Source: an uncultured archaeon
GTDB taxonomy: Archaea > Asgardarchaeota > Thorarchaeia > Thorarchaeales > Thorarchaeaceae
Assembly (NCBI GenBank): GCA_964590575.1
Contig: CAZPWM010000072.1
Span: 1 to 16,302, forward strand
Direction of reading: 5' to 3'
Length of the DNA: 16,302 nucleotides
Part shown: positions 2-16,302 of the stretch, in pieces
Layout: every line of letters begins with the position of its first letter
Numbering within the stretch: position 1 is the stretch's first letter
Position numbers and translations under genes: made by a program
The notes under the pieces: generated by a model
What the model was told of the DNA's origin: nothing
What the model saw: the letters and a program-made list of their open reading frames with translations, nothing else
The model's database searches: none

Positions 2-3000
2 GATAAATAGTGTATTAATCTTGGAAACAATCCCGGTCATCGTGATAGTTGGTAGATTCAGGTAGTATGGTGAAGATCCATCCCATCCCACATCAAGATT
101 GAATAGAAATGTTCCAGGAGCGAGCAAGGCAGTCGAATCAATCTGAATCGTATATAGTCCTGTTCCCTTTATAACGATGAAATCGACTCCTTCAACAAGA
201 CCACCACTCTTGAGATCAAAGGATATCAATGCATCATTCACAGGGTTCGCCGAGGTTGCGTCTAGTAACGTAAAGGAGAGATTGAGTAGTTCACCAAAGG
301 CAGTTTCTTCAGCGGATAAGACGGTATATGACATGGTTCGAGCTCTAGTTGTAACCCGTACTATTGTTGAGTCATCAAAGTAATAGGGAGCTGTCCCATC
401 ATTCCAGTCTACATATACAGTCACATTGTAGCTACTTACTAATCCAACACTAAGTACCGTTGAATTGATATTCACTGTGAATGTACCCGCTATTCCAGCA
501 AGGGCATACTGACCAAGTGTGAGAAGAACGCCACCAGCCCAAATTTGGATATCCGAAGCAGAAATTGTACTAATCACTGATCCAAGTCCGAGGTCTCTAA
601 ACACAAACTGGAAGGTAACATTGTCAAGATACCTTGCTTGAGTAGGCGGAGTTGTTATCTCAACATTAGCTTCTCGTTTCGTCACATAAACATGGACATC
701 TAAGTTTGCGTTGTCGTGATATGGAGCCCCGCTCAACCAAGTAGCACGAATCTGTACAGTGTTGTAAGCAAGTCCATCTAATGCAGTTGTATCTAGAGAA
801 ACCAAGTAGACCCCGTTTCCTTGAGGTGTAAGGACATAATCAACACCGTCAGTAAGTGGAGTTACTCCCTTGTAGATAGCAATACTGTCAGCTGCTATTC
901 CGTATCCACTATCTGAGTCGAGATACTGAACTCGGAAAATAGCATCCTCTAGATAGGGTGTTGGATCTGGAGATTCAACCAAAATAACATCAGATGCACG
1001 GTTTCTCAGTTCGAAGAATATGTATGTGTCATCAGAATCGAAGAACGGAGACTGAGCATCATAAGAAGCCTCAATGTGGAGGTTGTAGAGCACTCCTATG
1101 GTGAGAATATGATTGTATGTTTCTACTGTCAGTTCATAATATTGGAATGCAGGCTTCCATTCAATTGTGAAGAACCAGCTTGACCCATTTAGAATGGTCA
1201 ATGTCACGAGCGAAGAGTCATTACCAATCGTATCAAGTGTGAGTCTATCTTGGAAATCGAGTATGTAAACAAGAGAGGAATTATATGGAGCAGGTCCTAT
1301 GGGTTCAGCGGAAAGTAGCGTAGGTCTGTAGAGCACCTTCAGAGTGCGCGTCGAAACAGCATCATTGATGTAGAAAAAGCCTGTTGAAAGTTCGATTCTT
1401 AGATTATAATCTCCAGGATTTGTATAGTATGTTGTATTGAGTTCGACCTCATACAGACCAGTACCTAAATCCCGTACAGTGTAGTAAGTTTCTGGAATCA
1501 CGAATATCGTGTTATAGAGTGTAATCGTCGCCCCTTCAATTCCTCTTGTTGCTGCACCTGCCATATCTGTCCATTCGAGAGTGATTGTCACGTTGTTGGT
1601 ATATGATGTCGGTGCTGGTGATTGGTAGTCGAGAACCGTCTGTCGTGTGGTGACCGTGATATAGACCGTATGTCCAGTCCGGTTGTTGTAGTAAGGTGCA
1701 CCTGCCCAAGTGACACTAAGAGTGAATGATTTTTGGCCTAAGGGTGCTCCGAATTGGGTTGTATTGAAGGAAACCGCAAATGTGTGTGACCCACCAATCC
1801 ATGTGAGTGTGTAATCAGCTAAACTCAAACTCACTGACATTTTTAGATCGTCATCAATCGGCACACTTGCACCACCAGTCACGTCTTCAAATGTGAAGGA
1901 GAAGGTGGCGTTCTCACCATAAGCCTGAGGAGTTGGGGGTACAACAGATAGAACAGTGTCACGTGGCAGGACCCGTACAGAGAGGACATCAAATCGATTG
2001 GTGTAGAATGGAGCCACACCAGCCGTCCAATTGATATAGACATTCATATAGATGAGTCCGGTCCTACCAAATATTGTGGTGCTGAACGAAACCGAATAAT
2101 TACCAGGTTGAAGGGCGGGGTTAATCTCTGCAATTGTCACTAAGCCAAGGTCAACGTTTTCACCTTGGAAACTGACGTAGATGTGGACATTACCAGTTGT
2201 ATTTGTGATGCCGATTCCACTTGTTTCAGCATAATTGAAGATGTAAAGCATAGAATCGAGATATGGAGTTGGTTCTGATGACTGTAGTAATGTGAGTTGA
2301 GAGTCAACACCGATAATGTTTCCGGATGCAGCGGTCGATTTGTTCTCATATTGTTGAACTGGACCAACCCAATCGAAGTATATTATAAAGTTCTGAACAC
2401 CCTGTCCGAATATCGTCGCATCAATCTGAAGGGTATAGAAACCACTTCCATCATTGACTAAGGTGTGAGAAATCCAGTGTGTCTGGTTCCAGATACGAGA
2501 GAGAATATTGCTGTCATCAGTGATGCCAACTTTACCATCCCAGTCGTAGTATCGCAATGAGATATTGACAATTCCGTTGTATGGAGTTGGTTCAATTGCA
2601 CTCACCAAGTTGAAAATGGTCACATGGCTACGCACAATGACTTCAATTTCACAATAGCCATCATAGTAATTACCACTACCCTCATCAAAGTTGAACCAAA
2701 CAATGTATGTCCCCAATGCATCAGAACCAGTAGTTGTGAATGATATCTGCCAAGTCGTTCCGGTCCATGTGACAACCACATTCGGTTGAGTGGTCCAATT
2801 GTGTGTCACAGTTGCAGAACTGATCGGTACACCATTGTCAAGGTCATTGAAATCAATGGAGAATATCTTAGTACTACCAACTGGCATGTCCAAAGAGATG
2901 AGAGATGGTTCTGCATCTGTGTGAATCTGAGTGATTACGACTGTGATTCTAACAGTACGAGAGTCATAACCAGCTGCGTTGGCATCTAGATCAATTAGAT

Positions 3001-4756
3001 GAATTCCTATCGCGAGACCACTCACATCAATAATCACATCGTAATATCCTCCGCCAGTATGTGTTGGAGTGACTGGTGCATCCACTGATGTAATGACCCC
3101 GATGGTTATACCGAGGGCACGGTCGAGATCCTCATAGAAGAGGACAATCGTCACATCATGTTCGTATGGTGTGGAAACAGTGTACAGGTTAGCTGTCAAG
3201 TCACTCCTAGTTGGACGGTAGTTGAATGTAATCACGAGTTGAGTTGATGCATAGTTTGGATTGGAAGGATTCACATAAACAGTGATTGTATATGTTCCCT
3301 CTGGGAAGAATGAAGCTGCTATCGTTAGATTGTATATTCCAAGTCCAAAGTCGTTAATGGTTATCGGATAGGAATAAGTTCCATTGCTAACTGAAAAGTC
3401 AGCAGCAAGTCCAGTGATGAAGTCACCATAATTAGGACCTATCTCACTCACATTCAAACGAAGTGCAATATAGAAATCATCCCCATTTGGAAAGATTAAA
3501 TCACTTGGTTCATTATAGAGGTAGGTAGCCATGCTTCTGACTCTGACTTGAAAGTTGTAGTTTGATGGATTAAGGCAGTTTGACGAGCCAAGCATTGTCA
3601 CTGCGAGAGTCACTGATTCAACTCCTATAGCCCATGAATCAGTACCTGTTGGTAACAGCACATCGAGATTTGTAAAGGGAGATGAGACTGAGTAGAGTGG
3701 GTAGCTTGAAGTGAATTGTAGACTGCTAATATGAGAAGCTGCTACTATTCCCCCTGTGTCAAGATCGGTTATTACTACCGTTATTGATGTGTTATTCCCA
3801 TAAGGAGTGACTAGATTTCCTATGACTGTCGCAGATGTGTAGTGGTTTCTGATAGTCACTTGGAAATCATAGGAATTCGGAGCATAGTAATCTGAGCTCG
3901 ACATACTCACAGTGAGTGTGATATCCTCTACAGCAACACTCCAAGTGTTAGTGACTAGCGTTGGGTTAAAGGTCCCAAATACTTGCGAACCATAACTGGA
4001 GGGAGCGAAAGTTATGGATGCAACATTGCTGATGTCAACAAACCCTCCTGTATCAAGATCAATAAGAACCACAGTTGGGTATGTATTGAAACCTGCAGGA
4101 GTTACAAGATCACCGGTAACTGAAGCTGCTATATAGTGAGGTCGAAGGATGAATGCGATTTCCACACTTGCCATTTCAAGAAGAGTACCGGGTTTTGTCG
4201 CATTGAAGATGTACGAATACGCACCTACAGAGAAACCGGCGGTAGGAAGTGAAATATTATAATGGCCATTCGCTGCAGCAACCGGAGTTACTAGAGTACC
4301 ATTTGCGAAAGTAATAGTTGCACCAGTAATCGGGCTACCGTCAAAAGTATCAGTATAGACCAATGTAGCTGTAAAATCAAATCCGGTTGGTGTTGAGTCA
4401 ACGTTTGTAGAACCTAAAGTAGTATCATGGCTCAAATCAATATACAAAATTGTTGACGCATCTGTGTAGTAAGGATGACTTGATTGAATATCGAGCCTCC
4501 ATCTGATGTTGTTCTCCAAGTGAGATGTATTTAGAACAAGCCCATACAGTCCCCCACCTTCATAATGAAACTGGAGATTTGTACCGGAGTCATAGATAGT
4601 CCAATTTGTTGAAACAGAAGCTCCTCCCACACCTGAGCTTGTGAAGTCATCTGTCAGTTCAACTTGTACATAGAGGGATTCACCAATTGTAGTAGCAGTG
4701 ATGCTGTCACCAACTGCATCAGTTGGAGCTGTAAGACTCAATGAAGATGCTTGTTG
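2..4756 (-). repeat. 15 complete Ig-like repeats plus the start of a 16th in gene B
   Basis: Same pattern (e.g. RNHYTSATVIGNLVTPYGNNT, PRDTVLSVVPPTPQAYGENA, KREANVEITTPPTQARYLDNV), matching repeats 1-15 of gene A in order. Confidence 0.8.
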
Positions 4757-6694
4757 AATAGTGAAGGTTCGCTCATACATACCAACGCGGAAATTAACAG
4801 AACTTCCAGAGTCATTGTAGTACGCTGTAGCAATCCAAGATCCAGCAAGAGCTGTAGCATCCACTGTCTTTTTGATTTGAGAATCAGGAGAAACTCGTTC
4901 AATTTCTGAACCTATTGAGTAGAAAGTTGATGGGCTGTTTAGATTCCCGAACTCAGCTGCACGCCATGCTGTCGATCTACCGTTGGCTGTAGAAAAAGAT
5001 GATGCAACACGAACCTCATCCATTACACCATCAAACCATGCTAGGTTCCCGGTCACCTGATCAATCAATCCGCCCCCGATTTCCAAATCTGCGGCGAATG
5101 AAAGATCAGCATAAGTTATCCCTCCAGAGGTCCCACCCGTATCCACAATATTGTTGATCTGTATTCGATTTAGTGACGGATCACTAGCATCCATGAAGCA
5201 AGAGAAATAGTACCACACACCAGCAGACCAGCTAGTTTGGCTGGTCCACTTGTACATTTGACCACTGGCGCCATTCTCCGTCTTAAAGACCAAACTTCCA
5301 TCAGCAGTTGCATCGTTTGAATATACAGTAGAACCAGTTCCAACGAGCGCTATGTGCATATCATTATCGCCATCCAAAAACTTACTAAAGAGAACCTTAG
5401 TTGTTGTTGAAGACGGAGTATGAGCCACATCTAGTTTGAACCAACCTGATATCTCAACATCACCATTGGGTTCGAGAGATTCAGATGCAGATATGACAAC
5501 TTGGTCATTTGAACCATCAAAGTGTTGTCCGGAACCAACCCTACCAGTATCATCATAGTTACCACTTTGAGTTCCATCATAACTACCTGCAGTTGAATCA
5601 TAATGAATTGTTGTTGATTGCCCAGCAGTAGCATCCTCACCAAGATGCCAGACAGCAGCAAAGCTCTGAGTCCATACATCATCAGGGTTTTCCATATTTT
5701 CGAGAAGAGGATTTCCATAGTACATACTGATGACGGTATTAGTAGAACCAGTGAGGTTTGTCTTCACCCATGCAACTAAATGACCTGTTGCTTGATTGAA
5801 GAGTTCTATCTCGTGTGACAATATCTTCCCAGCTGAAACAAACAGAATATCATCTCCGTCACTCTGTACATCTGTCTGAAAGTCGGAAGTAGTGATGTCA
5901 ATTAGTACAGGAAAGTTGTTCACGTTGGTAGCTAGATGCTTTGTTCTATCAATAGTGATGATCTTCTTGTATTGGAATGATTGCAAGAGATGCGTTGGAA
6001 TACCAGTTGTTGTATTGGAAGCAGAATACCACTCAGAACCAGTTGGGTCAGTCAAAACAAATTCAGTTGATGCGCCAGTAATCCAACTACTTGTACTGCG
6101 AAATAGCATTTCATCACTTAGACCAAAGGTAGATGTTGTTGATAGTGGTCCAGTACTTGGTCCTAGTTCAAGATCAAATAGATGATTGATTGCACTAAAT
6201 TCGAGCTTCCAAATTCCATAAGTTGTAATTGCAGATTCACTGACATACACAAGTCCAGCTTCAAACCACCAATCAGTCGGATTTGTCTGTTCAACTCCAA
6301 TTGGGTTGGTTAGTGACACAGGAGCCCACTCCGTTTCGTTATAGTCCACTGTAAAACTAAATGTATCAATCTCTGAAGGTGGAGAAACAAGAATGTATGC
6401 TGTCCACGTAACTGTGCTTGAGTTTGACACCTCAAAGGAGGTGCCTGATGTGAAATCTGAGGAGAGAGTTGTGGTTGTATCAGTCCAACTCGAGCTGTTC
6501 ACGAATGTACCAAAAAAGGAAACAGTAAGAGGAGAGCCTTTACCGACATAAGTGCCGCCTGCCTCTGAAATCTGATTTTGGTTGTTCAGGTAATATTCCC
6601 TGTCGGTTGCTTGGGAACCGTTTCCTGACAGGTCTACAAGACTGAACATGAATAGCATGATAAATATTAGAGAAAGAACACTGCTTTTCCTCAT
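2..6694 (-). CDS. Gene B: giant secreted/surface protein, colinear paralog of gene A (signal peptide, DUF2341 + LamG-like head, at least 15 Ig-like repeats); 3'-partial
   Basis: Manual translation from ATG at 6694 gives MRKSSVLSLIFIMLFMFSLVDLSGNGSQATDREYYLNN...FQYKKIITID...NFPVLIDIT...WVKTNLTG...MYYGNP...VWHLGE and ends at the window edge with ...GWDGSSPYYLNLPTITMTGIVSKINTLFI. The frame is the same at both ends and no stop was found. An in-frame TAA lies 26 codons upstream of the ATG. Absent from the ORF track because it has no stop inside the window. Confidence 0.93.
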   Translation of the reverse strand, partial: MRKSSVLSLIFIMLFMFSLVDLSGNGSQATDREYYLNNQNQISEAGGTYVGKGSPLTVSFFGTFVNSSSWTDTTTTLSSDFTSGTSFEVSNSSTVTWTAYILVSPPSEIDTFSFTVDYNETEWAPVSLTNPIGVEQTNPTDWWFEAGLVYVSESAITTYGIWKLEFSAINHLFDLELGPSTGPLSTTSTFGLSDEMLFRSTSSWITGASTEFVLTDPTGSEWYSASNTTTGIPTHLLQSFQYKKIITIDRTKHLATNVNNFPVLIDITTSDFQTDVQSDGDDILFVSAGKILSHEIELFNQATGHLVAWVKTNLTGSTNTVISMYYGNPLLENMENPDDVWTQSFAAVWHLGEDATAGQSTTIHYDSTAGSYDGTQSGNYDDTGRVGSGQHFDGSNDQVVISASESLEPNGDVEISGWFKLDVAHTPSSTTTKVLFSKFLDGDNDMHIALVGTGSTVYSNDATADGSLVFKTENGASGQMYKWTSQTSWSAGVWYYFSCFMDASDPSLNRIQINNIVDTGGTSGGITYADLSFAADLEIGGGLIDQVTGNLAWFDGVMDEVRVASSFSTANGRSTAWRAAEFGNLNSPSTFYSIGSEIERVSPDSQIKKTVDATALAGSWIATAYYNDSGSSVNFRVGMYERTFTIQQASSLSLTAPTDAVGDSITATTIGESLYVQVELTDDFTSSGVGGASVSTNWTIYDSGTNLQFHYEGGGLYGLVLNTSHLENNIRWRLDIQSSHPYYTDASTILYIDLSHDTTLGSTNVDSTPTGFDFTATLVYTDTFDGSPITGATITFANGTLVTPVAAANGHYNISLPTAGFSVGAYSYIFNATKPGTLLEMASVEIAFILRPHYIAASVTGDLVTPAGFNTYPTVVLIDLDTGGFVDISNVASITFAPSSYGSQVFGTFNPTLVTNTWSVAVEDITLTVSMSSSDYYAPNSYDFQVTIRNHYTSATVIGNLVTPYGNNTSITVVITDLDTGGIVAASHISSLQFTSSYPLYSVSSPFTNLDVLLPTGTDSWAIGVESVTLAVTMLGSSNCLNPSNYNFQVRVRSMATYLYNEPSDLIFPNGDDFYIALRLNVSEIGPNYGDFITGLAADFSVSNGTYSYPITINDFGLGIYNLTIAASFFPEGTYTITVYVNPSNPNYASTQLVITFNYRPTRSDLTANLYTVSTPYEHDVTIVLFYEDLDRALGITIGVITSVDAPVTPTHTGGGYYDVIIDVSGLAIGIHLIDLDANAAGYDSRTVRITVVITQIHTDAEPSLISLDMPVGSTKIFSIDFNDLDNGVPISSATVTHNWTTQPNVVVTWTGTTWQISFTTTGSDALGTYIVWFNFDEGSGNYYDGYCEIEVIVRSHVTIFNLVSAIEPTPYNGIVNISLRYYDWDGKVGITDDSNILSRIWNQTHWISHTLVNDGSGFYTLQIDATIFGQGVQNFIIYFDWVGPVQQYENKSTAASGNIIGVDSQLTLLQSSEPTPYLDSMLYIFNYAETSGIGITNTTGNVHIYVSFQGENVDLGLVTIAEINPALQPGNYSVSFSTTIFGRTGLIYMNVYINWTAGVAPFYTNRFDVLSVRVLPRDTVLSVVPPTPQAYGENATFSFTFEDVTGGASVPIDDDLKMSVSLSLADYTLTWIGGSHTFAVSFNTTQFGAPLGQKSFTLSVTWAGAPYYNNRTGHTVYITVTTRQTVLDYQSPAPTSYTNNVTITLEWTDMAGAATRGIEGATITLYNTIFVIPETYYTVRDLGTGLYEVELNTTYYTNPGDYNLRIELSTGFFYINDAVSTRTLKVLYRPTLLSAEPIGPAPYNSSLVYILDFQDRLTLDTIGNDSSLVTLTILNGSSWFFTIEWKPAFQYYELTVETYNHILTIGVLYNLHIEASYDAQSPFFDSDDTYIFFELRNRASDVILVESPDPTPYLEDAIFRVQYLDSDSGYGIAADSIAIYKGVTPLTDGVDYVLTPQGNGVYLVSLDTTALDGLAYNTVQIRATWLSGAPYHDNANLDVHVYVTKREANVEITTPPTQARYLDNVTFQFVFRDLGLGSVISTISASDIQIWAGGVLLTLGQYALAGIAGTFTVNINSTVLSVGLVSSYNVTVYVDWNDGTAPYYFDDSTIVRVTTRARTMSYTVLSAEETAFGELLNLSFTLLDATSANPVNDALISFDLKSGGLVEGVDFIVIKGTGLYTIQIDSTALLAPGTFLFNLDVGWDGSSPYYLNLPTITMTGIVSKINTLFI
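4940..5660 (-). other. LamG/concanavalin A-like jellyroll domain in gene B
   Basis: VWHLGE...DSTAGSYDG...FDGSNDQV...ISGWFK...VWYYFSC...EIGGG...WFDGVMDEVRVAS. Confidence 0.85.
5684..5977 (-). other. DUF2341-like domain in gene B
   Basis: FQYKKIITID...NFPVLIDI...SDGDDILF...LSHEIELF...AWVKTNL...ISMYYGNP. Confidence 0.8.
6608..6694 (-). other. Sec-type signal peptide (or N-terminal anchor) of gene B
   Basis: MRK basic n-region, hydrophobic SVLSLIFIMLFMFSLV h-region, polar DLSGNGSQA c-region with a possible S-Q-A cleavage site. No twin-Arg motif and no lipobox Cys. Confidence 0.75.
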
Positions 6695-6700
6695 ACTCGG

Positions 6701-6706
6701 CACCTT
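6701..6706 (-). promoter_or_regulatory. Putative Shine-Dalgarno for gene B
   Basis: Minus strand reads AAGGTG-CCGAGT-ATG: an AGGTG core matching the GGAGGTGA consensus, 6 nt before the start codon. Confidence 0.55.
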
Positions 6707-6781
6707 CGAAAGTCGACTTAGAGCGACCCACCATCTCCTCAATGGCAAGTCCACTGCTGGAGTTTCAGATTATTTGTTCCC

Positions 6782-6804: not shown

Positions 6805-6868
6805 TTCTCTCCCTCTTTCATCGGAGCGGTCTTTTTTTCGACATGAAAGAAAATAGAGAAGGAACCAG
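6805..6868 (-). terminator. Pyrimidine-rich tract and imperfect hairpin directly after the gene A stop (terminator or mRNA stability/processing element)
   Basis: Minus strand TTCCTTCTCTATTTTCTTTC lies ~12 nt after TAG. Arm 6839-6860 pairs with arm 6805-6823 (about 19 bp including 3 G-U, with two small bulges). Confidence 0.45.
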
Positions 6869-6876
6869 GAGGATAC

Positions 6877-9800
6877 CTAGCCCTTCTTGCCTTCTAAGCT
6901 CTTAACGAGCTCATCAACGAGTTCACGCGGTAGTTCCTTCGCTTGCTCAATGATTGTGTCAATCTCATGAGGAGGTACACCCTTACGTTCAAGATCACGT
7001 CGGAGTTCCTCAAGCTCGTAGAGATTCATCTTGTCAGATGGTGTTACAGCTTCTTCTTCTTCGTAGATATCCTTCTCAACCGGAGTGACGTCTTTTGTAG
7101 GAATAGGAGTGGCGTTCTCCTCTTCCTCAAGGAATACTCGTTCTTCAGGAGCTGGAGTAACGACTTCGATTGGTTTTACTCCCTCATCTCCACCAAGACG
7201 CCGCGCAGCTTCCTTTTCAATAACTGCGAGTGTCTCTTCTATTGTCCTACCATCACGACGGGCTGCGCGAATAGCCTCCTGCATTATGACCTCTTTCACG
7301 AATGCAGCCTGTTCACTCATTTTCATCTTGGCAATATCAGCCTGGAACTCGTCAAGCTCATCAGGACTGAGATTAGTAAGGATTGCGAGCTGCATGAGGA
7401 GCTCGCCCATTTCTGGAACCTCAATAGGTATGGGGTCTTCTGGCATTTGAGCTGCTGTCCGAGTTATCTTCATTTTCTCATAGGTATCGTTGAAGAGCTC
7501 TGCTGCTAGTTGTTGCCGACTCTTGACATCGCGTATTGGTTTGGGAACCTTGCCCTTACGAAGAGTCTTTAGTTGGCTGTTAATTTGACGGATTCTCTTT
7601 GGAACACTCCAGACTTTCACATAAGCTCCGAGTAATACGATAATGAAGATACTAATCGGAAGACCATAAAGCGTTATGTTTGAAACTAGTTTATCGAAAT
7701 CGCTAGCCTGCGTGGTTATTCTAAGGATAATACTAGCATCATCATGGAAGTCCCTACTCATTGTTATTCGAATAGCAGGTTGTCCATTATACCCCACAGC
7801 AAGAATCACTATCCTATAGTGACCGTTGCCAAGAGAGTAATTGTTGTCTATTTTGACAGTGTCTCCAGCGATGATATAGAACGAAGCGCCATCAACACCC
7901 CTGTTATGCCACGTGTCGTTGAGATAGAAATCAAAGACAATACTCTCACCATTTATGAGTGCATACGGAATCTCAATATCTGGGTCTGCAAGTTGGCCAT
8001 CGTGTAAGATTCTCGTGGGTGTATATATGATCCGGATTCGGATTTCTCGTGTCTGCAATTGCCTATTTTCGTCAAAGATTTCTATCCTAAATCTGAAGTA
8101 TTCGCCTTCTAGAATGACAGGATATCCATATAGGTCATATAACACAGGATTATTTGTATCAAAGGTGAAATTATAGTAACCAAATCCTTCTCGAAATAGT
8201 ATTGGCGTATAATTAGAGAAATATGCTGGAGCTCTCAACACTGTGAACTCTGAGAAGTTCGCGCCAGTAATTCCGCCAAATAAACCACCAATTGAACTGG
8301 TATCATTATAGAACAACGATATATTAATTGCATCGCCCATTGTTAATTCGAGATAAATTATTCCTGATTCAATTGAATAAAAATTCTGGTCAGGGTATTC
8401 AATGATTAATTCTGTAGGTCTCTCAAGTATATGAATAAAGTAGCTACGTGACTGGGTTTCATAGTTGGGAAGGAAGAATAGAGTGGAGATTCTTTCTCTA
8501 ATATTAGAATCCAGTAGTGTTGTATCTATATAGAGTGTATATGTTCCATTTCCTAGGTCTGTAGCATTGAAATCTAGGTTGCCATAGCTATAGGTAACTG
8601 TTGCACCACGTACAAACCTCGTGTTGTAGGTATCAGTGTAGTTTAGGGAGATGGTCCCAGTCCAACCCCATACCAAGTCTATAGTTTCGGTAGGACCTTC
8701 AATATCTGTTGGAACATTCTTAATTGTTAGAGTCATACTTGTTAAGGTATCAGCAAGAGTTGTATTAGTTGGGTATCCATAGAACGACGCTCCCACTGTA
8801 CCAAATCCCAAGATTGATGTATTGAATGTCAGTGTCCAGATGCCATTGCCCATCGATGTGAAGTTAAGGTAGATATTGCGAGTGTTGTCTCTCCAAGAAA
8901 CTTCGCCATTATCGACTTCCATAAAGAATGAAACTGTACTAGACGTTGTGAAATTAAGGTGCAATGTGACATTCTGGAGGTAATATACCTCAAGTTTCGT
9001 AGGATCCGGAAGACCAGTCACACGGAGCTGCGTTGGAGTTTGTGTGATATATATCTTGAACTGATCAACAGCTGGATCGTAGTTGTTGAAGCTAGCGAAG
9101 ATTTGCACATCATATGATAGCAATGCTTCTAGGATAGTCGCAGTTCCAGGTATTGTAACACTCCATCGTCCAGTAAAGACGCTATAAATCATGTAGTACT
9201 TAACACTACTCAATCTTGCATAGACTTGGAGCTGTCCTGATTCATTTCGAACTTGTGTATCATCAATCGATAGATCATAGTCAATATCATGGAGTTCCAC
9301 CTCAATGAAGACTGAATCTCCTCTACCCACTTCTTTCACTATATCAGTGGGTTCGTGGATTATTATTTCGCTTGGAATCGTCAATACTACTAATGTTATT
9401 GTTGTAATTGCTGTTGTGTACTTGTCCTTTGTAGCTGTAATAGTAGCAACAAATGTTCCTGCTGTAAATGAGCTAGTATCAATTGTTGCGTTATAACGTC
9501 CAGGAGTACCAACAGCTGTCAGAGAACCGCCAAACGCCTCCGAGGACCAAGTTACACTATATGCACCGGAAATTGGAACTCCATTCAACAAATCGAGATA
9601 GTCCACTGAGATTATAGCGTTTCCCTTCCAGTACACTGTAACAGACGTATCTACTGGAGTTAGAACTGTGTTGATAGCTATCACGTTAAATTGTGGTGTC
9701 ACAGTCACTGATGCATATACCGAAACAGCTGCTACAATTCTTAGTGTGTAGGGTCCTAAGGTGGGTAAATCAGATGTACTGAAGGTAATATTATAGATTC

Positions 9801-12800
9801 CTGATGAAACATACTCGTAGACTACCAAGCTTGCAGGCCTTAACCCGCTTACGAGGTACTTAACATTTGAATCGACGATTGCGGCATACCCAGAGATTGG
9901 AAGACCATGATCAAGGTCCTTCCAAGTTACATTGAGTGAAACACTACCTGTGTATTGGACCGATGATGGAACCAGAGCATTGACCTGAAGAGAGGTTCGT
10001 ACCAAGTCAACTAGACCAGTCAAAGTTACCAAAGAACGGTTAGAATAGAATGGGGATAATGAGGGGTTCCACTGTACTTCAATATCAAAGAAGAACGTAC
10101 CAGTCCCAGTCAATGACAAGGTGTCGACATTGAAAGAATAAGTTCCTGACCCCTCAGTCTTGGTATAGTCAACTCCTTCTATTAAGAAATGACCCTGACA
10201 GCTGAATTGTATTATTGCACCTGCAATTGGACTACCACTATCAAGGTCAGAAAGGTTGACTGTAATGTTGAGAACATCACCTTTTGGAGTTCTATCAATT
10301 TGGTCTGTTTCAACAAGAATAGAACGTCCTGTTATTGTCACCTTGACAATAGTGAAATCATCTGCATAGTATGGTGCTTGTGCAGCAGGCCAGTCCACTA
10401 CGACCCTGATTGATAGACCAATCACAGACATATTAGAAATAATTGTTGATGAGATTGTAGTCTCATATGTGCCACTGTTTAGAATAATGGTGTAATCCAA
10501 CTGGTTGATTTCAGTCATATTTGGCCAGTACAAATGGATCAATGATAGATCAGCTAATGAAATGGATGTACCTGCGTCGAGGTCATTATACTCAAACTCA
10601 AAGGTCACATCATCCAAGTACAATGTCTGTGCTGGAGGTATAGTGATTCCTAAATTGGTTTCTCTTTGTCGAATCAGAACATTGACGAGTTGAGTTGCAC
10701 TTTCATGATAAGGCACACCGGTCCTGCTTGCCTGAATCTCAAGCGCGTGAACTCCAAGACCACCAAGGGCAGTTGAATCGATGACAATAGTGTAATAACC
10801 AGGACCTCCTTCAGTCACTGTGTAGTGAGTATTTTCAACAAGAGGAATAGAATTATTCAATACAATGATTTGAGCTCCATCGATTCCAGCTCCGCTAGCG
10901 TCATCATCACTAAAGAATAGGGTGAATGTAGCATCATCAAGATATGGCGTGGTTTCGGGTTCGGTATCGAGTGCCAGAGAAGAATCTCTAATTACTATCT
11001 TGAAAGTGCTTGATACTTGACCGCTCTGATAGAACGGTGCTTGATATGCGTAGCTCATCCTTATTGTGAAGGAGTGTTGAGTACCTGGTGCCCAAATGAC
11101 TGGATCCCAGCTTTGATTCCATGCAATGATTAGTTCATAGTTTTGACTGAGCGCGCTCCAGGCTGAAGTGAAAACCGCACCGGAGGGAGACAATATCTCG
11201 ATTGTAACAGGGTATCCATGCGCTGAATCATTTGCTATCGATTGTGTAGTGAATTGGTCCAAATAGCTCAAAATGATCCTGATTGAGGAATTATATGGCA
11301 CATCAACCACTGGATTTACTGCAACTATTGTGAAGCGCTCAAGGATTGAAAAAGCCCGATCGACTATCTTGTCTGGTATATAGATTAGTCCGATAGAAAT
11401 CTGCACTCTTAGCGTCTTGATCCCTGGTGTAGTTGTGTAGGTTGTGTTAAGAGTGACTTGATAAATGCCAGGAGCTATCTCAAAATAGTTATACTCAGCG
11501 GAGTCTATAGAGAACAAACCTTCTCTCAACACAAGAGTTGCTGAAGTTATCGGGACAGAAGCGCCACCTGTCGTGTCAGTCCAAGTCACATTGAAAATAA
11601 CTTGGTCCCCATATTGTGTTGGTGGAGGAGTGAGATATTCCAGTGAGGTTTCTCTCACTATAACGTTGATGTAGGTAATACGACCAGTTCGATTGGCATA
11701 GAAGGGAATTCCAACCCATGTCACATCAACAAGTATTGCTTTCAGTCCTAGACTGCCAAACTGACCTGTGTTGAATGAGATGCTGTAAGTTCCAGCAACC
11801 TCTACGAGAGAGAAGGAAATGTTTAGTGATATTTCTTGCTTGGAAAGACCAGTTATGAATGAACTACCTGTGATGTCCTCAAAGGTTAATGTAATGGTTG
11901 CATTCTCATTGTAACTTGTCGATGATGCAGGCGTGATTGAGAGAAGAGTATCTCTTGGTAGAACCCTGATTGAAACTACATCAGTTCTGTTAGAATAGAA
12001 GGGTGAAACACCTTTTGACCAGTTAACGAACACATTCATGTAGAACAGTCCGGTCCGACTGAAAATACCAGTATCAAATTGGATAGCGTATTGTCCAGGC
12101 AGAGTAGCAGAATAATCCAAGATTATGATATCTGATGGATTGACTGGTTCACCTTGGAAACTGACATAGATGAATACATTTCCTGTGAGGTTAGCAATTC
12201 CGGTTCCCGAATCACTGTAAAAGAAGGTGTACGCCATATTCTCATCATAGGGTGTTGGTTCGGAACCAACTAGAAGTGTGAGTGATGAATCCTTTCCAAC
12301 AACGAGTGCAGTAGTTACAAATGCCTTGTCCTGATATTTAGTAACAGCTCCTGTCCAATCTGCGTAAACAGTAAATGTCTGAAAGCCTAAACCAAATTGA
12401 GAAGCTGACACAGAAATGATGTAATAACCATCGCCAAGAAACAAGTCATAGTCATAGCTTGAGATTACTGGTCCAGAATCATTCGATACCGAGAATAACA
12501 CCAGGGAGGATTTGATGCCAACTGCACTATCAAGATCTCCGTAGTAAACTGAGATGTTGAACGTGCCACTCGTACTGGTTGGTTCAATTGAGCTTACTAT
12601 TCTGAATTCTGTATTATGTGTACGGATAGTTACTACGACGTTGAAACTGACAGTTTGATAATTGCCGCCTTTTGAGAACTCAAAGTTGTAAACAATATTC
12701 GAGGAAATGGTGTCAGAATCAGAGGTGTGGAATGTAATCTTGTATTTCTGAAGTCCCGGCATGTATTCAACTGAGAAGTTATGCCACGTTGAAACAACCT

Positions 12801-15800
12801 GAGTATATGGTGAGGTGCTATTATCGATAGGTATGAGTCGATCAATATCTGAATAATCGACATAAAAGATGGGGGAATTTCCAATCGGGATTACCAATGA
12901 ACTCAACGAGGGTATTACAGAAGTATATGCTTGGCGAATTACTAATCTGAACTCAAGGGTTCTTCCAGAAATGCCTGATTTGTCTGCCGTAAGGTTCAGG
13001 TAGTAGATTCCTTGGGTCAATGTTGAAACATCAATCCATACCTCATAGATACCTCCGCCCACGTCACTCCAGTTGGCAATCCAAGTAGGATGATCTGGAG
13101 AGGATATTACAGCTCCAGCTATGCCAGAACCAAAATCGATGTCAGTGTAGTTGAGAATGATTTTAACATCTAGTTGATAGGGAGTTGTTACCTGGGGATG
13201 ATTTGGAGAGGTCAGAGTACTGTCCACCTCTCGATAGAAGAATCGTATCACAAGGAAAGTATTCCCATACTCACTATTTGCAGAGGTGAAATAGACGATG
13301 ATTTCGTATGGCCCACCAGTAAAGTATGATTCACTAATGGTCAACTTGTATCTACCAATCGCTTGTTCTGCTGTGTCTATAACAATTACATACCCCGGTA
13401 CAGAGAACTCTCCTGCAATCCTACCTGTTATGGGATCACCATAGTTTGGCCCAATTTCACTCACATTTAGACGGAGGTAAACCTCCAAGTCAGAGCCAAG
13501 TGGGAAGTTCAATGTAGATGGGTCGTGATACATCACGGATGACATACTTCGAATCGTTATAGAGAACTGATAGCTTGAGGGATTACTATAGATAGTTCCA
13601 CCTATTGTCACAATGACACTAACTGAATGTGTTCCCACAGACCATGTGCTTGTATCCAATGTGATTATGTAGCTGCCACTAGAATCATAGATCCCAAATG
13701 GGTGTTGTAGTCTGATGTTTGATACAGAGCCAATTGGTACAATACTACCATTTTCTAAATCTGTCAGGATTATATTCAGCGTAGTCTGATTACCATATGG
13801 TTTTGTAGTGACGCCGGTCACAGACACTGAAGTTCTATGAGACAAAATCTGGATGTTGAACACATATGGAATAGGTGCTTGAATCTTGGTGTTCGACATT
13901 GTGATTGTTAGGGTGGCTGTAACACTACCCACACTCCAATCAGCAGTTGTCAGGGTAGCAGAGTAGGTCCCAAATGCATCAGCCCCATAACCGCCAGTAT
14001 AAGTGAAGGTCAGAGTACCTACATCAGAGATACCAACTGCAAGACCTGTGTCCAAGTCGAATAGGAAGACAGTGACTTGTGTATCTTCTCCATATGGTGT
14101 AGTCATATCTCCAGTTACAGTGGCTGAAGTACGATGGGCACGGAGCGTGAAAGTAACATCCACTTGTGCTACATGTAGGAACCCGCCCGGTGCCGTTGCA
14201 TTGAAAGTGTAAGGATGAGAACCAAGACCTAGAGAATTTGTTAGAATAGCAATGTCGTATGTACCATCACCATTGTCAGTGACAAAATCGATGGGATTTC
14301 CATCTGAGTAAGTGATTGTGGCCCCGGTAATTGGAGCGCTTGTATATTGATCTCTGAAGGTCAAGGTAGTAGTGAAGTTGAAGTCAGCAGGAGTAGCGGA
14401 TACACCAGAGGCCTGCAGTTGAGTGGAGTGGTAGAGGTCCACTTTGAAGTACTCTGTTGCATTGTTGTAATATTGGTGATATGACTGGATATTAATTCGC
14501 CATTGCTTATTGTCCCCAAGGCCTGTTGTGGACAATACCTTTCCATAGATTCCTCCACCGTAGTCATTGAGTGTGATCGTGGATGGAGCTGTCCAGTTCA
14601 TGGTGACTGTTGCACCAGGTATTCCCTGAGCTGTGATATCATCGTTGAGCTCATACTCAACAATGAGTGAATCTCCAACAGTTTTAACCGAGAGTCGGTC
14701 TCCAACAGCGTCAGAGGGTTCAGTGAGTGTCAAAGTGGTGGGGTGACGGACAATGAAAGTCCGCTCGAAGAGACCTGTCTTGTTTGTGACTGAGCTACCA
14801 GTATCATTATAATATGCTATTGCGGTCCATAGACCAGCAGGAGCTGAAGAGTCAATAGTCTTCGTAAGGGTGTGCTCTGGTGAGGTTCGCACTTGCTCGG
14901 ATCCGGGACTTAGGAAAATATCAGCGTCTCTGTAGTTATGCTCCTCGTTCTTAAGCCACGTATCAGTCCTGAGTGTGTTTGAAACTGTAAACTCATCAAG
15001 TCGACCAGCAAAATACCCAGACCCTTCATAACTCGTTTCATAATCCCCGCCACCTAATTTCCACTCTTCAATGTATGATACATTCGCTTGAGTAGCACTA
15101 CCAACGAATCCTGCGTCAGTGTTCCAATTCGTGTCAACCCAGATTTTGTTGTTTGAGGGCGTATCTTCATCCGCATAACAGGCTATGAAATACCATTGGT
15201 TTGCGTTCCAGGTTATCTTCTGAGTCCATTTGTAAATAGGATCATTTTGTGAACTCTCAACCTTGAAAACAAGTGTGCCATTTGGCACTGTCCCTTGCGT
15301 ATAATCTTGGCCAACTAATGCTATGACCATATCATGGTCGATATCGATATACTTCTCCATGATTACCTTTGTAGTTGGTGAGGATGAGGAATGAGGAGAA
15401 GAGAGCTTGAACCAGCCAGTTATCAACACGTCATTCTGAGGAGCTAAGGTTTTATCAAATGAGATGTAGTCGTTGCTTCCATCAAATAGTTGACTATACC
15501 CAGCACCATCAAAGACATCTGTGTTTCCATTACGAACTCCGTCGTATCCGTTTCCTGTTGAGTCGAAGTGTATGTCACCACCGATAACGAGGTCCTCTTC
15601 ATTCAAATGCCATACAGCCTCATAATTATTAGACCACACACCCGCGGGATTTTCAAGATTGTCAACAATGGGAGAACCATAGTACATAGTGATTGTGTTA
15701 TCGACTCCATGAGTCAGGTTGGTCTTAACCCATGTGGTAAGATACGCCGTATTGATTGAATAGGATTGGTCGAAGTATTCAATCTGATGATCGAGAATTT

Positions 15801-16302
15801 TATCTCCGACTGCAAATAGAATATCAGATGCATCTGCTCGAACCTTACTCGTGTCGAATAAATCAGTATCTTCAAACTGAATAAGTACAGGGAAGTTGAC
15901 AAGATTCTCGGACCCAAAGATTTCAGCAGAAGGTATTGTAATGTCTTTTCGGTAACTGAATGATGGAAACTTATGATCAGGATCAGTCCCAGTTGTTTGA
16001 TTGTAGGCTGAATACCATATATTACCATCGGGCTGGACTAGGTCCAATCCAACACGTGCTCCAATTACTGTAGGGGTAGTCATTGTGAATTTCGCTGTGT
16101 CATTGATGTTGAATGCAGTATTATCTATCTGGAGGTCTTGCATAAAGTTCCAGCTGATGAACTTGAGAGTCCATACACCCCAGAAGTCAATCGATGATGC
16201 ATTTAGAGTCAGAGTTCCACCATGATACCACCAGTCTTGGTCAACGGTCTTTGGTTGGTTCAATGGATTGAGAACCTTGGTTGCTTTCCATTCAGCTCGA
16301 GG
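6877..16302 (-). CDS. Gene A: giant type I membrane surface protein (DUF2341 + LamG-like head, ~22 Ig-like repeats, C-terminal TM helix, cytoplasmic tail); 5'-partial
   Basis: 3128-aa ORF in the track with TAG stop at 6877-6879. The track's TTG start at 16263 is probably not the true start: the frame stays open to 16302 (PRAEWKATKVLNPLNQPKTVDQDWW), and this extension aligns with gene B (NETEWAPVSLTNPIGVEQTNPTDWW). Thr/Ser/Tyr-rich, nearly Cys-free, many N-x-S/T sequons. Confidence 0.95.
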   Translation of the reverse strand, partial: PRAEWKATKVLNPLNQPKTVDQDWWYHGGTLTLNASSIDFWGVWTLKFISWNFMQDLQIDNTAFNINDTAKFTMTTPTVIGARVGLDLVQPDGNIWYSAYNQTTGTDPDHKFPSFSYRKDITIPSAEIFGSENLVNFPVLIQFEDTDLFDTSKVRADASDILFAVGDKILDHQIEYFDQSYSINTAYLTTWVKTNLTHGVDNTITMYYGSPIVDNLENPAGVWSNNYEAVWHLNEEDLVIGGDIHFDSTGNGYDGVRNGNTDVFDGAGYSQLFDGSNDYISFDKTLAPQNDVLITGWFKLSSPHSSSSPTTKVIMEKYIDIDHDMVIALVGQDYTQGTVPNGTLVFKVESSQNDPIYKWTQKITWNANQWYFIACYADEDTPSNNKIWVDTNWNTDAGFVGSATQANVSYIEEWKLGGGDYETSYEGSGYFAGRLDEFTVSNTLRTDTWLKNEEHNYRDADIFLSPGSEQVRTSPEHTLTKTIDSSAPAGLWTAIAYYNDTGSSVTNKTGLFERTFIVRHPTTLTLTEPSDAVGDRLSVKTVGDSLIVEYELNDDITAQGIPGATVTMNWTAPSTITLNDYGGGIYGKVLSTTGLGDNKQWRINIQSYHQYYNNATEYFKVDLYHSTQLQASGVSATPADFNFTTTLTFRDQYTSAPITGATITYSDGNPIDFVTDNGDGTYDIAILTNSLGLGSHPYTFNATAPGGFLHVAQVDVTFTLRAHRTSATVTGDMTTPYGEDTQVTVFLFDLDTGLAVGISDVGTLTFTYTGGYGADAFGTYSATLTTADWSVGSVTATLTITMSNTKIQAPIPYVFNIQILSHRTSVSVTGVTTKPYGNQTTLNIILTDLENGSIVPIGSVSNIRLQHPFGIYDSSGSYIITLDTSTWSVGTHSVSVIVTIGGTIYSNPSSYQFSITIRSMSSVMYHDPSTLNFPLGSDLEVYLRLNVSEIGPNYGDPITGRIAGEFSVPGYVIVIDTAEQAIGRYKLTISESYFTGGPYEIIVYFTSANSEYGNTFLVIRFFYREVDSTLTSPNHPQVTTPYQLDVKIILNYTDIDFGSGIAGAVISSPDHPTWIANWSDVGGGIYEVWIDVSTLTQGIYYLNLTADKSGISGRTLEFRLVIRQAYTSVIPSLSSLVIPIGNSPIFYVDYSDIDRLIPIDNSTSPYTQVVSTWHNFSVEYMPGLQKYKITFHTSDSDTISSNIVYNFEFSKGGNYQTVSFNVVVTIRTHNTEFRIVSSIEPTSTSGTFNISVYYGDLDSAVGIKSSLVLFSVSNDSGPVISSYDYDLFLGDGYYIISVSASQFGLGFQTFTVYADWTGAVTKYQDKAFVTTALVVGKDSSLTLLVGSEPTPYDENMAYTFFYSDSGTGIANLTGNVFIYVSFQGEPVNPSDIIILDYSATLPGQYAIQFDTGIFSRTGLFYMNVFVNWSKGVSPFYSNRTDVVSIRVLPRDTLLSITPASSTSYNENATITLTFEDITGSSFITGLSKQEISLNISFSLVEVAGTYSISFNTGQFGSLGLKAILVDVTWVGIPFYANRTGRITYINVIVRETSLEYLTPPPTQYGDQVIFNVTWTDTTGGASVPITSATLVLREGLFSIDSAEYNYFEIAPGIYQVTLNTTYTTTPGIKTLRVQISIGLIYIPDKIVDRAFSILERFTIVAVNPVVDVPYNSSIRIILSYLDQFTTQSIANDSAHGYPVTIEILSPSGAVFTSAWSALSQNYELIIAWNQSWDPVIWAPGTQHSFTIRMSYAYQAPFYQSGQVSSTFKIVIRDSSLALDTEPETTPYLDDATFTLFFSDDDASGAGIDGAQIIVLNNSIPLVENTHYTVTEGGPGYYTIVIDSTALGGLGVHALEIQASRTGVPYHESATQLVNVLIRQRETNLGITIPPAQTLYLDDVTFEFEYNDLDAGTSISLADLSLIHLYWPNMTEINQLDYTIILNSGTYETTISSTIISNMSVIGLSIRVVVDWPAAQAPYYADDFTIVKVTITGRSILVETDQIDRTPKGDVLNITVNLSDLDSGSPIAGAIIQFSCQGHFLIEGVDYTKTEGSGTYSFNVDTLSLTGTGTFFFDIEVQWNPSLSPFYSNRSLVTLTGLVDLVRTSLQVNALVPSSVQYTGSVSLNVTWKDLDHGLPISGYAAIVDSNVKYLVSGLRPASLVVYEYVSSGIYNITFSTSDLPTLGPYTLRIVAAVSVYASVTVTPQFNVIAINTVLTPVDTSVTVYWKGNAIISVDYLDLLNGVPISGAYSVTWSSEAFGGSLTAVGTPGRYNATIDTSSFTAGTFVATITATKDKYTTAITTITLVVLTIPSEIIIHEPTDIVKEVGRGDSVFIEVELHDIDYDLSIDDTQVRNESGQLQVYARLSSVKYYMIYSVFTGRWSVTIPGTATILEALLSYDVQIFASFNNYDPAVDQFKIYITQTPTQLRVTGLPDPTKLEVYYLQNVTLHLNFTTSSTVSFFMEVDNGEVSWRDNTRNIYLNFTSMGNGIWTLTFNTSILGFGTVGASFYGYPTNTTLADTLTSMTLTIKNVPTDIEGPTETIDLVWGWTGTISLNYTDTYNTRFVRGATVTYSYGNLDFNATDLGNGTYTLYIDTTLLDSNIRERISTLFFLPNYETQSRSYFIHILERPTELIIEYPDQNFYSIESGIIYLELTMGDAINISLFYNDTSSIGGLFGGITGANFSEFTVLRAPAYFSNYTPILFREGFGYYNFTFDTNNPVLYDLYGYPVILEGEYFRFRIEIFDENRQLQTREIRIRIIYTPTRILHDGQLADPDIEIPYALINGESIVFDFYLNDTWHNRGVDGASFYIIAGDTVKIDNNYSLGNGHYRIVILAVGYNGQPAIRITMSRDFHDDASIILRITTQASDFDKLVSNITLYGLPISIFIIVLLGAYVKVWSVPKRIRQINSQLKTLRKGKVPKPIRDVKSRQQLAAELFNDTYEKMKITRTAAQMPEDPIPIEVPEMGELLMQLAILTNLSPDELDEFQADIAKMKMSEQAAFVKEVIMQEAIRAARRDGRTIEETLAVIEKEAARRLGGDEGVKPIEVVTPAPEERVFLEEEENATPIPTKDVTPVEKDIYEEEEAVTPSDKMNLYELEELRRDLERKGVPPHEIDTIIEQAKELPRELVDELVKSLEGKKG
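6880..7608 (-). other. ~243-aa cytoplasmic tail of gene A
   Basis: Composition switches from beta-rich T/S/Y/V to E/K/R/L/M-rich helical sequence, with an acidic Pro/Thr linker and a terminal helical module. Confidence 0.8.
7609..7677 (-). other. C-terminal transmembrane helix of gene A
   Basis: ITLYGLPISIFIIVLLGAYVKVW followed by the basic segment PKRIRQINSQLKTLRKGKVPKPIR (positive-inside rule implies a cytoplasmic C-terminus). Confidence 0.88.
7711..14748 (-). repeat. About 22 tandem divergent Ig-like repeats (protein level, average ~107 aa) in gene A
   Basis: Recurring pattern R.T.L....(P)TPY.D.V.F...Y.D.D.G..I.GA.I....G.G.Y.I.IDT..L..G.Y.L.I...V.I. Counted by eye from RHPTTL to YTPTRI. 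Not visible as DNA repeats. Confidence 0.8.
14932..15630 (-). other. LamG/concanavalin A-like jellyroll domain in gene A
   Basis: VWHLNE...DSTGNGYDG...FDGSNDYI...ITGWFK...QWYFIAC...KLGG...YFAGRLDEFTVSNTLRT follows the typical Laminin_G_3 motif order. Confidence 0.85.
15646..15960 (-). other. DUF2341-like domain in gene A
   Basis: YRKDITI...NFPVLI...ADASDILF...LDHQIEYF...TWVK...TITMYYGSP matches the remembered DUF2341 pattern (DI.F...L.++IE.+....+WVK......I.+YYG). Confidence 0.8.

Follow-up and report, generated by a model that had tools for sequence, protein, structure and literature searches.

A strongly conserved, predicted cytoplasmic tail on giant surface proteins of Thorarchaeota

The DNA analysed here, referred to below as the window, is a stretch of 16,302 nucleotides from an uncultured archaeon of the Thorarchaeaceae (assembly GCA_964590575.1, contig CAZPWM010000072.1), and its minus strand consists of two giant open reading frames (ORFs) lying head to tail. 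ORF A (6877..16302, minus strand) is open at its 5' end, has 3141 visible amino acids and closes with a stop codon at 6877-6879. ORF B (2..6754, minus strand) is a tandem paralogue from a class of proteins of ~3150 amino acids; its 3' end is open at the window edge and 2251 amino acids are visible. The element studied here is formed by the final 266 codons of ORF A (6880-7677, minus strand). Judged from its sequence, it is predicted to anchor a giant type I surface glycoprotein of a Thorarchaeote in the membrane and to form the cytoplasmic domain of this protein.

The position of the anchor was taken from hydropathy. The best Kyte-Doolittle windows of 19 residues in ORF A score 2.11-1.69 and all overlap residues 2871-2901, while the next-best segment (1.86 at residue 2297) lies within a beta-rich repeat. 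The single transmembrane (TM) helix was therefore set at residues 2878-2898 (7609..7671, minus strand; hydropathy peak 2.11), where AlphaFold2 also models a helix (residues 2-23 of the modelled piece) with a predicted local distance difference test score (pLDDT) of 95. Exactly 243 residues (6880-7608) follow a helix placed there, the same number that an earlier note on this DNA, made from the sequence alone, had given for the tail.

The AlphaFold2 model covers the 266 residues of TM helix and tail, was built on 82 aligned TM-plus-tail sequences and reached a mean pLDDT of 84.9 and a predicted template modelling score (pTM) of 0.48. Directly after the TM helix the tail begins with a basic juxtamembrane segment (7519..7608, minus strand), in which an amphipathic helix (model residues 27-40, hydrophobic moment 0.45) precedes a Lys/Pro-rich loop. 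Net charge in the first 30 residues of the tail is +9, compared to a median of +8 (range 4-10) in a set of 69 tails. A short helix (54-65) and a confidently modelled Pro/Glu-rich loop (together 7411..7518, minus strand) lead into a four-helix core (7195..7410, minus strand; helices 90-101, 105-116, 120-142 and 146-161, pLDDT 94-98), and this core carries most of the invariant polar residues (K-M-K-x-S-E ... F-x-K-E-V-I-x-Q-E stretch). It is connected by an acidic, proline-rich and disordered linker, or tether (7033..7194, minus strand; model residues 162-215 with low confidence, block pLDDT 47-61), to a three-helix end module at the C-terminus (6880..7032, minus strand; helices 219-231, 236-246 and 251-264, pLDDT 92-96), which is present in one copy. 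Across the 69 tails the linker measures 42-64 residues, with 28% Glu, 12% Pro and a median charge of -16, and the median net charge is -4 for the core and likewise -4 for the end module. The tail as a whole contains 15.6% Glu and 8.6% Lys. Modelled separately, the core gave a pLDDT of 85.6 and a pTM of 0.52. The earlier note had divided the tail into a basic amphipathic juxtamembrane segment, a helical domain, an acidic linker and a terminal helical module; since the order of the AlphaFold2 helices matches, this four-part description was correct.

In front of the TM helix lies the ectodomain of ORF A (7672..16302, minus strand), of which 2877 amino acids are visible. It is beta-rich, has a high content of Thr and Ser as well as of Asn, Tyr, Gly and Ile, and contains 0.1% Cys. 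With 59 N-x-S/T sequons it exceeds by far the number found in 500 shuffled sequences (31.3 +/- 4.7, maximum 46), which suggests that the ectodomain is heavily N-glycosylated. A BLAST comparison of the ectodomain with itself revealed no internal repeat at E ≤ 0.001; repeats are nonetheless visible by eye. The charge flanking the TM helix changes from -1 in the 15 residues before it to +4 in the 15 residues after it, following the positive-inside rule. Moreover, a hydrophobic stretch is present in the first 60 residues of 71 of the 97 relatives with at least 3000 amino acids, and ORF B has such a leader as well. The composition of the tail is that of a cytoplasmic helical protein. From flanking charge, leaders, sequons and tail composition taken together we infer that the tail is on the cytoplasmic side. 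Hydropathy, N-terminal leaders, ectodomain sequons and positive-inside charge likewise lend indirect support to the receptor-like type I topology that had been proposed from the sequence.

The reading frame of the tail is real and under purifying selection, as shown by a comparison of the window with six orthologous loci, in which the differences are concentrated on codon position 3. Against locus L001, for example, 36, 27 and 156 substitutions were counted at codon positions 1, 2 and 3, corresponding to 120 synonymous and 53 non-synonymous codon changes. Conservation is stronger in the tail than in the ectodomain: in each of the 120 homologues listed (of 131), identity to the window is higher for the tail than for the alignable part of the ectodomain, the median difference being 20.7 identity points. 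This comparison is conservative because only those portions of the ectodomain that BLAST could align were counted. Within the tail, the mean fraction of the 69 rows showing the commonest residue is 0.79 for the juxtamembrane segment, 0.79 for the first short helix, 0.64 for the loop, 0.78 for the core and 0.72 for the end module, with 0.52 for the TM helix and 0.37 for the linker. Columns conserved to at least 90% make up 12 of 30 in the juxtamembrane segment, 31 of 72 in the core, 16 of 49 in the end module and none of 54 in the linker. The near-invariant positions are often polar or charged (Arg, Lys, Asn, Asp, Ser, Glu, Gln) and thus fit conserved surfaces, beyond a hydrophobic core alone. 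Far from being poorly conserved or disordered, the tail is well conserved and, apart from the linker, predicted to be folded.

When proteins of 1727-5497 amino acids were searched with the tail alone, 131 of 2990 candidates matched at E ≤ 0.001. Identity in the 120 matches listed is 50-79%, with 88-100% of the tail covered, and the 41 organism-named rows among the matches listed comprise 37 from Thorarchaeota, two from Promethearchaeota and one each from Hermodarchaeota and Odinarchaeota. An exhaustive HMMER pass over 1,835,955,588 representative proteins yielded 120 matches at E ≤ 0.001, 103 at ≤ 1e-10 and 56 at ≤ 1e-30. In addition, one genome per GTDB species was scanned with two peptide patterns, which gave 65 loci in 54 assemblies (counted by accession prefixes); since the scan rests on these two patterns, copy numbers per genome are minimum values. 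By title, 53 of the loci are from Thorarchaeota, eight from an 'archaeon' or 'uncultured archaeon', two from Hermodarchaeota and two from Promethearchaeota. The labels of loci and proteins bear out the guess, made without knowledge of the source, that the host is an Asgard archaeon. The closest locus is that of Thorarchaeota SMTZ1-45, and as its tail is 80% identical, the species of the window is related to SMTZ1-45 but distinct from it. The searches show, at the level of sequence, that the tail is a lineage-restricted module of Thorarchaeota-labelled genomes and close kin and is not Asgard-wide.

We searched 231 retrieved proteins with separate profiles for core and end module, and the window matches both profiles. 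Exactly one core is found in each of the 214 core-bearing proteins. The number of end modules is more variable: among 219 proteins, 208 have one, three have two and eight have four copies, and in every one of the 219 the final copy lies at most 9 residues from the C-terminus. A hydrophobic helix directly upstream of the core is present in 193 of 194 testable proteins, the single miss scoring 1.59 against a cut-off of 1.6. The HMMER matches are of four kinds, namely full tails, located C-terminally in proteins or in gene fragments; a subfamily that combines a single core with four tandem end modules (P0146, P0150, P0155, P0156 and P0161 with the fragments P0167, P0169 and P0170); a subfamily of ~2580 amino acids with a core, a short linker and a single diverged end module, in which two of eight members are named Thorarchaeota; and a few small proteins. 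Among the last group and similar candidates, P0221, a possible soluble stand-alone core, is unconvincing (a singleton on a 1610-base contig). In P0217, P0219 and P0209, pieces of the tail are joined to a truncated OPT transporter, a prenyltransferase fragment and part of a receiver domain, respectively; these apparent fusions probably stem from chimeric contigs or faulty gene calls. None of the four was counted as evidence for domain shuffling.

The tail is common to ectodomain classes of ~2580, 3150, 4080 and 5040 amino acids. The ectodomains of relatives are 27-75% identical to that of the window, and some of these proteins carry PF13385 and PF10102. In a maximum-likelihood tree of 85 tails the window falls, together with seven proteins of ~4080 amino acids, into a clade with 100/99 support. 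Length classes cluster in this tree, with 11 label changes compared to 35.7 in shuffles and none of 200 shuffles as low, but they are not strictly monophyletic (7, 4 and 7 changes needed for the 3150, 4080 and 5040 classes, respectively). Of the 10 rows of the ~2580-residue subfamily, 9 group in a deep clade of their own (100/100 support), and long branches leave some of its joins unsafe. The clustering by length class implies that the tail mostly moved with whole-gene duplicates and was not shuffled onto unrelated proteins. The earlier idea of a module shared by different ectodomains thus stands in so far as the tail occurs on several length classes, but these are mostly paralogues of one repeat architecture.

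We did not find a known domain in the tail. No Pfam family scored above its curated cut-off in the tail of the window or in the 82 aligned tails; at E ≤ 1 the window tail matches only RecX_HTH1 (E 0.0067, sub-threshold) and VIT1 (E 0.69), with no match to Snf7, cadherin or integrin families. The commonest sub-threshold names among the 82 tails are MobC_2 (22), RecX_HTH1 (17, best E 0.0018) and Bap31_Bap29_C (16). NCBIfam gave no match to the tail and the ESM Atlas no usable one. When PDB sequences were searched with profiles for the entire tail, for the core and for the end module, all rows returned were at chance level. De novo TIM barrels (no stretch passing alone) and an immunity repressor (E 0.0097) were rejected, riboflavin kinase was judged to be at chance level (E 0.0041, but E 0.097 for the stretch), and the matches of uS15 and polycystin-2 to the end module (E ~0.04) are not significant and are probably due to a helix-turn-helix pattern of a generic kind. 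In these weak alignments, helix 1, a Gly-containing turn and helix 2 of the end module lie on the N-terminal domain of archaeal/eukaryotic uS15 and on the EF-hand region of polycystin-2. Foldseek comparison of the whole tail with 350,542 PDB chains produced no match at E ≤ 0.001 (best 0.86), and neither did the model of the core against the PDB (best E 1.1, top query TM-score 0.34); the end module, with 45 residues, is too small for fold matching by Foldseek to be informative. A match to an already characterised domain is therefore lacking in Pfam, NCBIfam, PDB sequences, Foldseek against the PDB and the ESM Atlas.

Scans for short motifs gave a similar picture. Walker A, HExxH and CxxC are absent from all 69 tails, in agreement with the earlier remark that the tail has no obvious catalytic motif, and the median Cys content is 0. 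NPxY and MIM1 (strict and relaxed patterns) were found in none of the 69 tails and a MIM2-like pattern in four. Sorting signals were searched in the 69 TM-plus-tail sequences; neither PGF nor LPxTG occurs in any of them. The open-access literature searched contained no description of the tail. The giant surface protein anchored at its C-terminus is of a kind already known from archaea, and what is new here is a previously undescribed, lineage-specific cytoplasmic module.

In its overall plan the protein resembles eukaryotic type I adhesion receptors such as classical cadherins and integrin beta. Such receptors have a signal peptide and a huge, glycosylated ectodomain built from repeats. After a single TM helix come a basic juxtamembrane stretch and a cytoplasmic tail without enzymatic activity, which is the most strongly conserved part of the protein. 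The Thorarchaeota giants share the leader, the giant sequon-rich ectodomain, the one TM helix, the basic juxtamembrane segment and the conserved, enzyme-free tail. However, the tail has no similarity in sequence or fold to those of cadherins and integrin beta, NPxY is missing throughout, no partner like catenin or talin is known and the family is restricted to a single lineage of archaea. Closer to home, C-terminally anchored archaeal surface and surface-layer (S-layer) glycoproteins also begin with a leader, have an ectodomain rich in sequons and bear a hydrophobic helix close to the C-terminus. Archaeal S-layer and PGF-CTERM proteins end a few basic residues past this helix or are lipid-anchored, whereas here 243 residues with two folded modules follow and a PGF motif is not present. 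Among bacteria, Ebh of Staphylococcus aureus combines a giant repeat ectodomain with a TM helix close to the C-terminus and a charged cytoplasmic segment. Its sequence is unrelated and its context is the bacterial cell wall; the Thorarchaeota tail, in contrast, is a folded, conserved and modular domain.

Giant archaeal proteins of at least 5000 amino acids have been surveyed; they usually have an N-terminal Laminin_G_3 domain, three of them are from Thorarchaeota and their function is not understood (PMC11573180). The proteins described here are giant like these Laminin_G_3/LamG proteins with their N-terminal concanavalin-type domain, and relatives carry PF13385 and PF10102. They differ in that the accessible part of the survey, which includes only proteins of at least 5000 amino acids, does not describe a TM helix with a conserved cytoplasmic module (PMC11573180). 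In a cultured Lokiarchaeon, cryo-tomography has shown a single membrane with complex surface proteins and without an ordered S-layer, and cultured Asgard archaea bear many unidentified surface proteins (PMC9834061).

The genes around the tail give some further information on the family. ORF A is incomplete in the window; its orthologues are ~4050-4130 amino acids long and its nearest full-length relatives have 4063-4089. ORF B passes the threshold of PF10102 (DUF2341) in Pfam (30.3 bits against a cut-off of 23.4, E 6e-07). The visible part of ORF A stays below this cut-off, but ~930 N-terminal residues fall outside the window, and full-length relatives of ORF A do carry PF10102. The N-terminus of ORF B is signal-peptide-like and matches relatives of 3130-3180 amino acids, which do bear the tail; since the 3' end of ORF B is cut by the window edge, its own tail must lie outside the window. 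The GTG start listed for ORF B at 6754 is probably too far upstream, as relatives start at the leader Met, which corresponds to an ATG at ~6694. A terminator-like hairpin of 8 pairs with a T-rich run behind it (6862-6883, minus strand) overlaps ORF A at its stop codon; it is the one site found in the region compared to 0.4 expected from shuffles, with a bacterial-type consensus that may not suit an archaeon. Two plus-strand ORFs opposite the tail, 6943..7509 (188 amino acids) and 7085..7450 (121 amino acids), are most likely antisense shadows, the codon-position statistics favouring the minus frame; the translation of the longer one is rich in Cys, Phe and Leu.

Each genome has several giant paralogues that share the tail. 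Tandem arrangement of tail-bearing giants, as in the window, was seen in eight of the 65 loci (L001, L003, L007, L012, L013, L021, L052, L064). In two loci (L020:3-1022 and L023:2-595, both minus strand) a further giant gene is divergent from the ~3150-residue gene, and its N-terminus is like that of relatives with 5035-5050 amino acids (the ~5040 class). With this third, divergent giant, some Thorarchaeota would have a three-gene cluster of tail-bearing proteins with more than 12,000 codons in total. In four other loci (L027, L035, L051, L063), all from assemblies that are long or complete, the ORF with the tail has a mere 473-1231 amino acids and is preceded by same-strand ORFs resembling pieces of a giant gene (979+544+403+1230+473 amino acids in L035, for example). 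These short ORFs may be due to sequencing frameshifts, may be pseudogenes or may be truly shorter variants.

Downstream of the last giant gene the order of genes is the same in 20 of the 22 loci listed, with L039 and L061 as exceptions: a convergent ORF of ~255 amino acids is followed by ORFs of ~145, 380, 445 and 370 amino acids. In L023 the downstream genes encode a Rad51-family protein, GcvH, an AAA ATPase, an FAD-binding protein and an Fe-S/CCG protein, with malic enzyme, nitroreductase and peroxiredoxins beyond them, and the neighbourhood of L059 includes an M28 peptidase. Such a strongly conserved gene order (L009-L063, ~0-10 kb downstream) indicates that the giant-gene cluster occupies a fixed place in Thorarchaeota genomes.

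A tail that is folded, free of enzymatic motifs, strongly conserved and common to the giant paralogues is most simply explained as a docking device. Our preferred reading, which we hold tentatively and would not yet call probable, is that it serves as a non-enzymatic docking module for a cytoplasmic partner shared by the giant surface proteins. The basic amphipathic helix would rest on the inner leaflet and the core would act as a membrane-proximal platform, from which the end module, on its flexible acidic and proline-rich leash, could capture the partner that these surface proteins have in common. Capture of the partner would fix or organise the surface coat from inside, and the difference between one end module here and four in the sister subfamily might amount to a tunable valency. 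Several observations weigh against this reading. Neither the neighbouring genes nor the scans for interaction motifs revealed a partner: the downstream genes are housekeeping and convergent, providing no candidate, and the interaction motifs NPxY and MIM1 are absent from the 69 tails. The pTM of 0.48-0.52 despite a pLDDT of ~85 leaves the packing of the helices uncertain, and all relatives derive from metagenome-assembled genomes. Furthermore, the high conservation could instead reflect a role in self-assembly or biogenesis.

It might be that tails interact with one another, through contacts between two cores or between the end module of one molecule and the core of its neighbour, so that the giants are clustered into a coat beneath the membrane, with branching where four end modules are present. 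The combination of one core with one to four end modules per protein, the invariant polar residues in both parts and the occurrence of several paralogues with near-identical tails in one cell would suit such a lattice, as would the complex surface proteins of a cultured Asgard archaeon without an ordered S-layer (PMC9834061). We nevertheless consider it unlikely, since long helices of coiled-coil type are missing and core and end module are both net acidic. Somewhat less likely still is a handle for biogenesis or retention, required for export, stop-transfer, coupling to glycosylation or quality control of near-megadalton ectodomains. The tail is present in every class of giant paralogues, whatever the ectodomain, and its basic juxtamembrane stretch, which is strongly conserved, is of the type seen in topology determinants; yet a few basic residues suffice for stop-transfer, and a folded core of ~110 amino acids with a strictly C-terminal end module exceeds this requirement.

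The resemblance to eukaryotic adhesion receptors, in topology and in a tail better conserved than the ectodomain, and the Asgard host invite the proposal that adhesion is linked through the tail to actin regulators of Asgard archaea, to ESCRT-III/Vps4 or to small GTPases. We regard this as improbable: MIM1 and NPxY are missing from all 69 tails and a MIM2-like pattern occurs in only four, the window tail lacks Pfam matches to cadherin, integrin and Snf7 even at E ≤ 1, the neighbourhood contains no such genes and the family is limited to Thorarchaeota-labelled genomes and close kin instead of being Asgard-wide. Equally speculative is its widest form, in which the tail would be the inner half of an Asgard adhesion-receptor system, a Thorarchaeota-specific adaptor linking giant fibres to actin, ESCRT or small-GTPase machinery with one to four end modules setting the strength of the link, and thereby an archaeal counterpart, by convergence or shared logic, of the eukaryotic coupling between receptor and cytoskeleton. 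Very unlikely, finally, is signalling by release, in which a ligand or force acting on the ectodomain would trigger intramembrane cleavage and set the tail free as a regulator. A weak, sub-threshold likeness to three-helix modules of DNA-binding type (RecX_HTH1 in the 17 tails mentioned) and the sigma-factor chains that top the Foldseek list at E ~1 point in this direction, but all of these matches are non-significant, the tail past the juxtamembrane helix is strongly acidic, which argues against binding of nucleic acids, and no protease gene lies nearby.

A tail of ~27 kDa that is folded, enzyme-free, strongly conserved and carried by every giant surface paralogue of a Thorarchaeote is a concrete bait for partners beneath the membrane. 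If self-assembly or a role in biogenesis proved to be true, the tail would explain how proteins of 3000-5000 residues stay at the surface. If the partner were part of the cytoskeletal or membrane-remodelling machinery, it would inform on cell-cell contact in the archaeal ancestors of eukaryotes. The tail may thereby bear on how the surface of an Asgard cell is tied to its interior.

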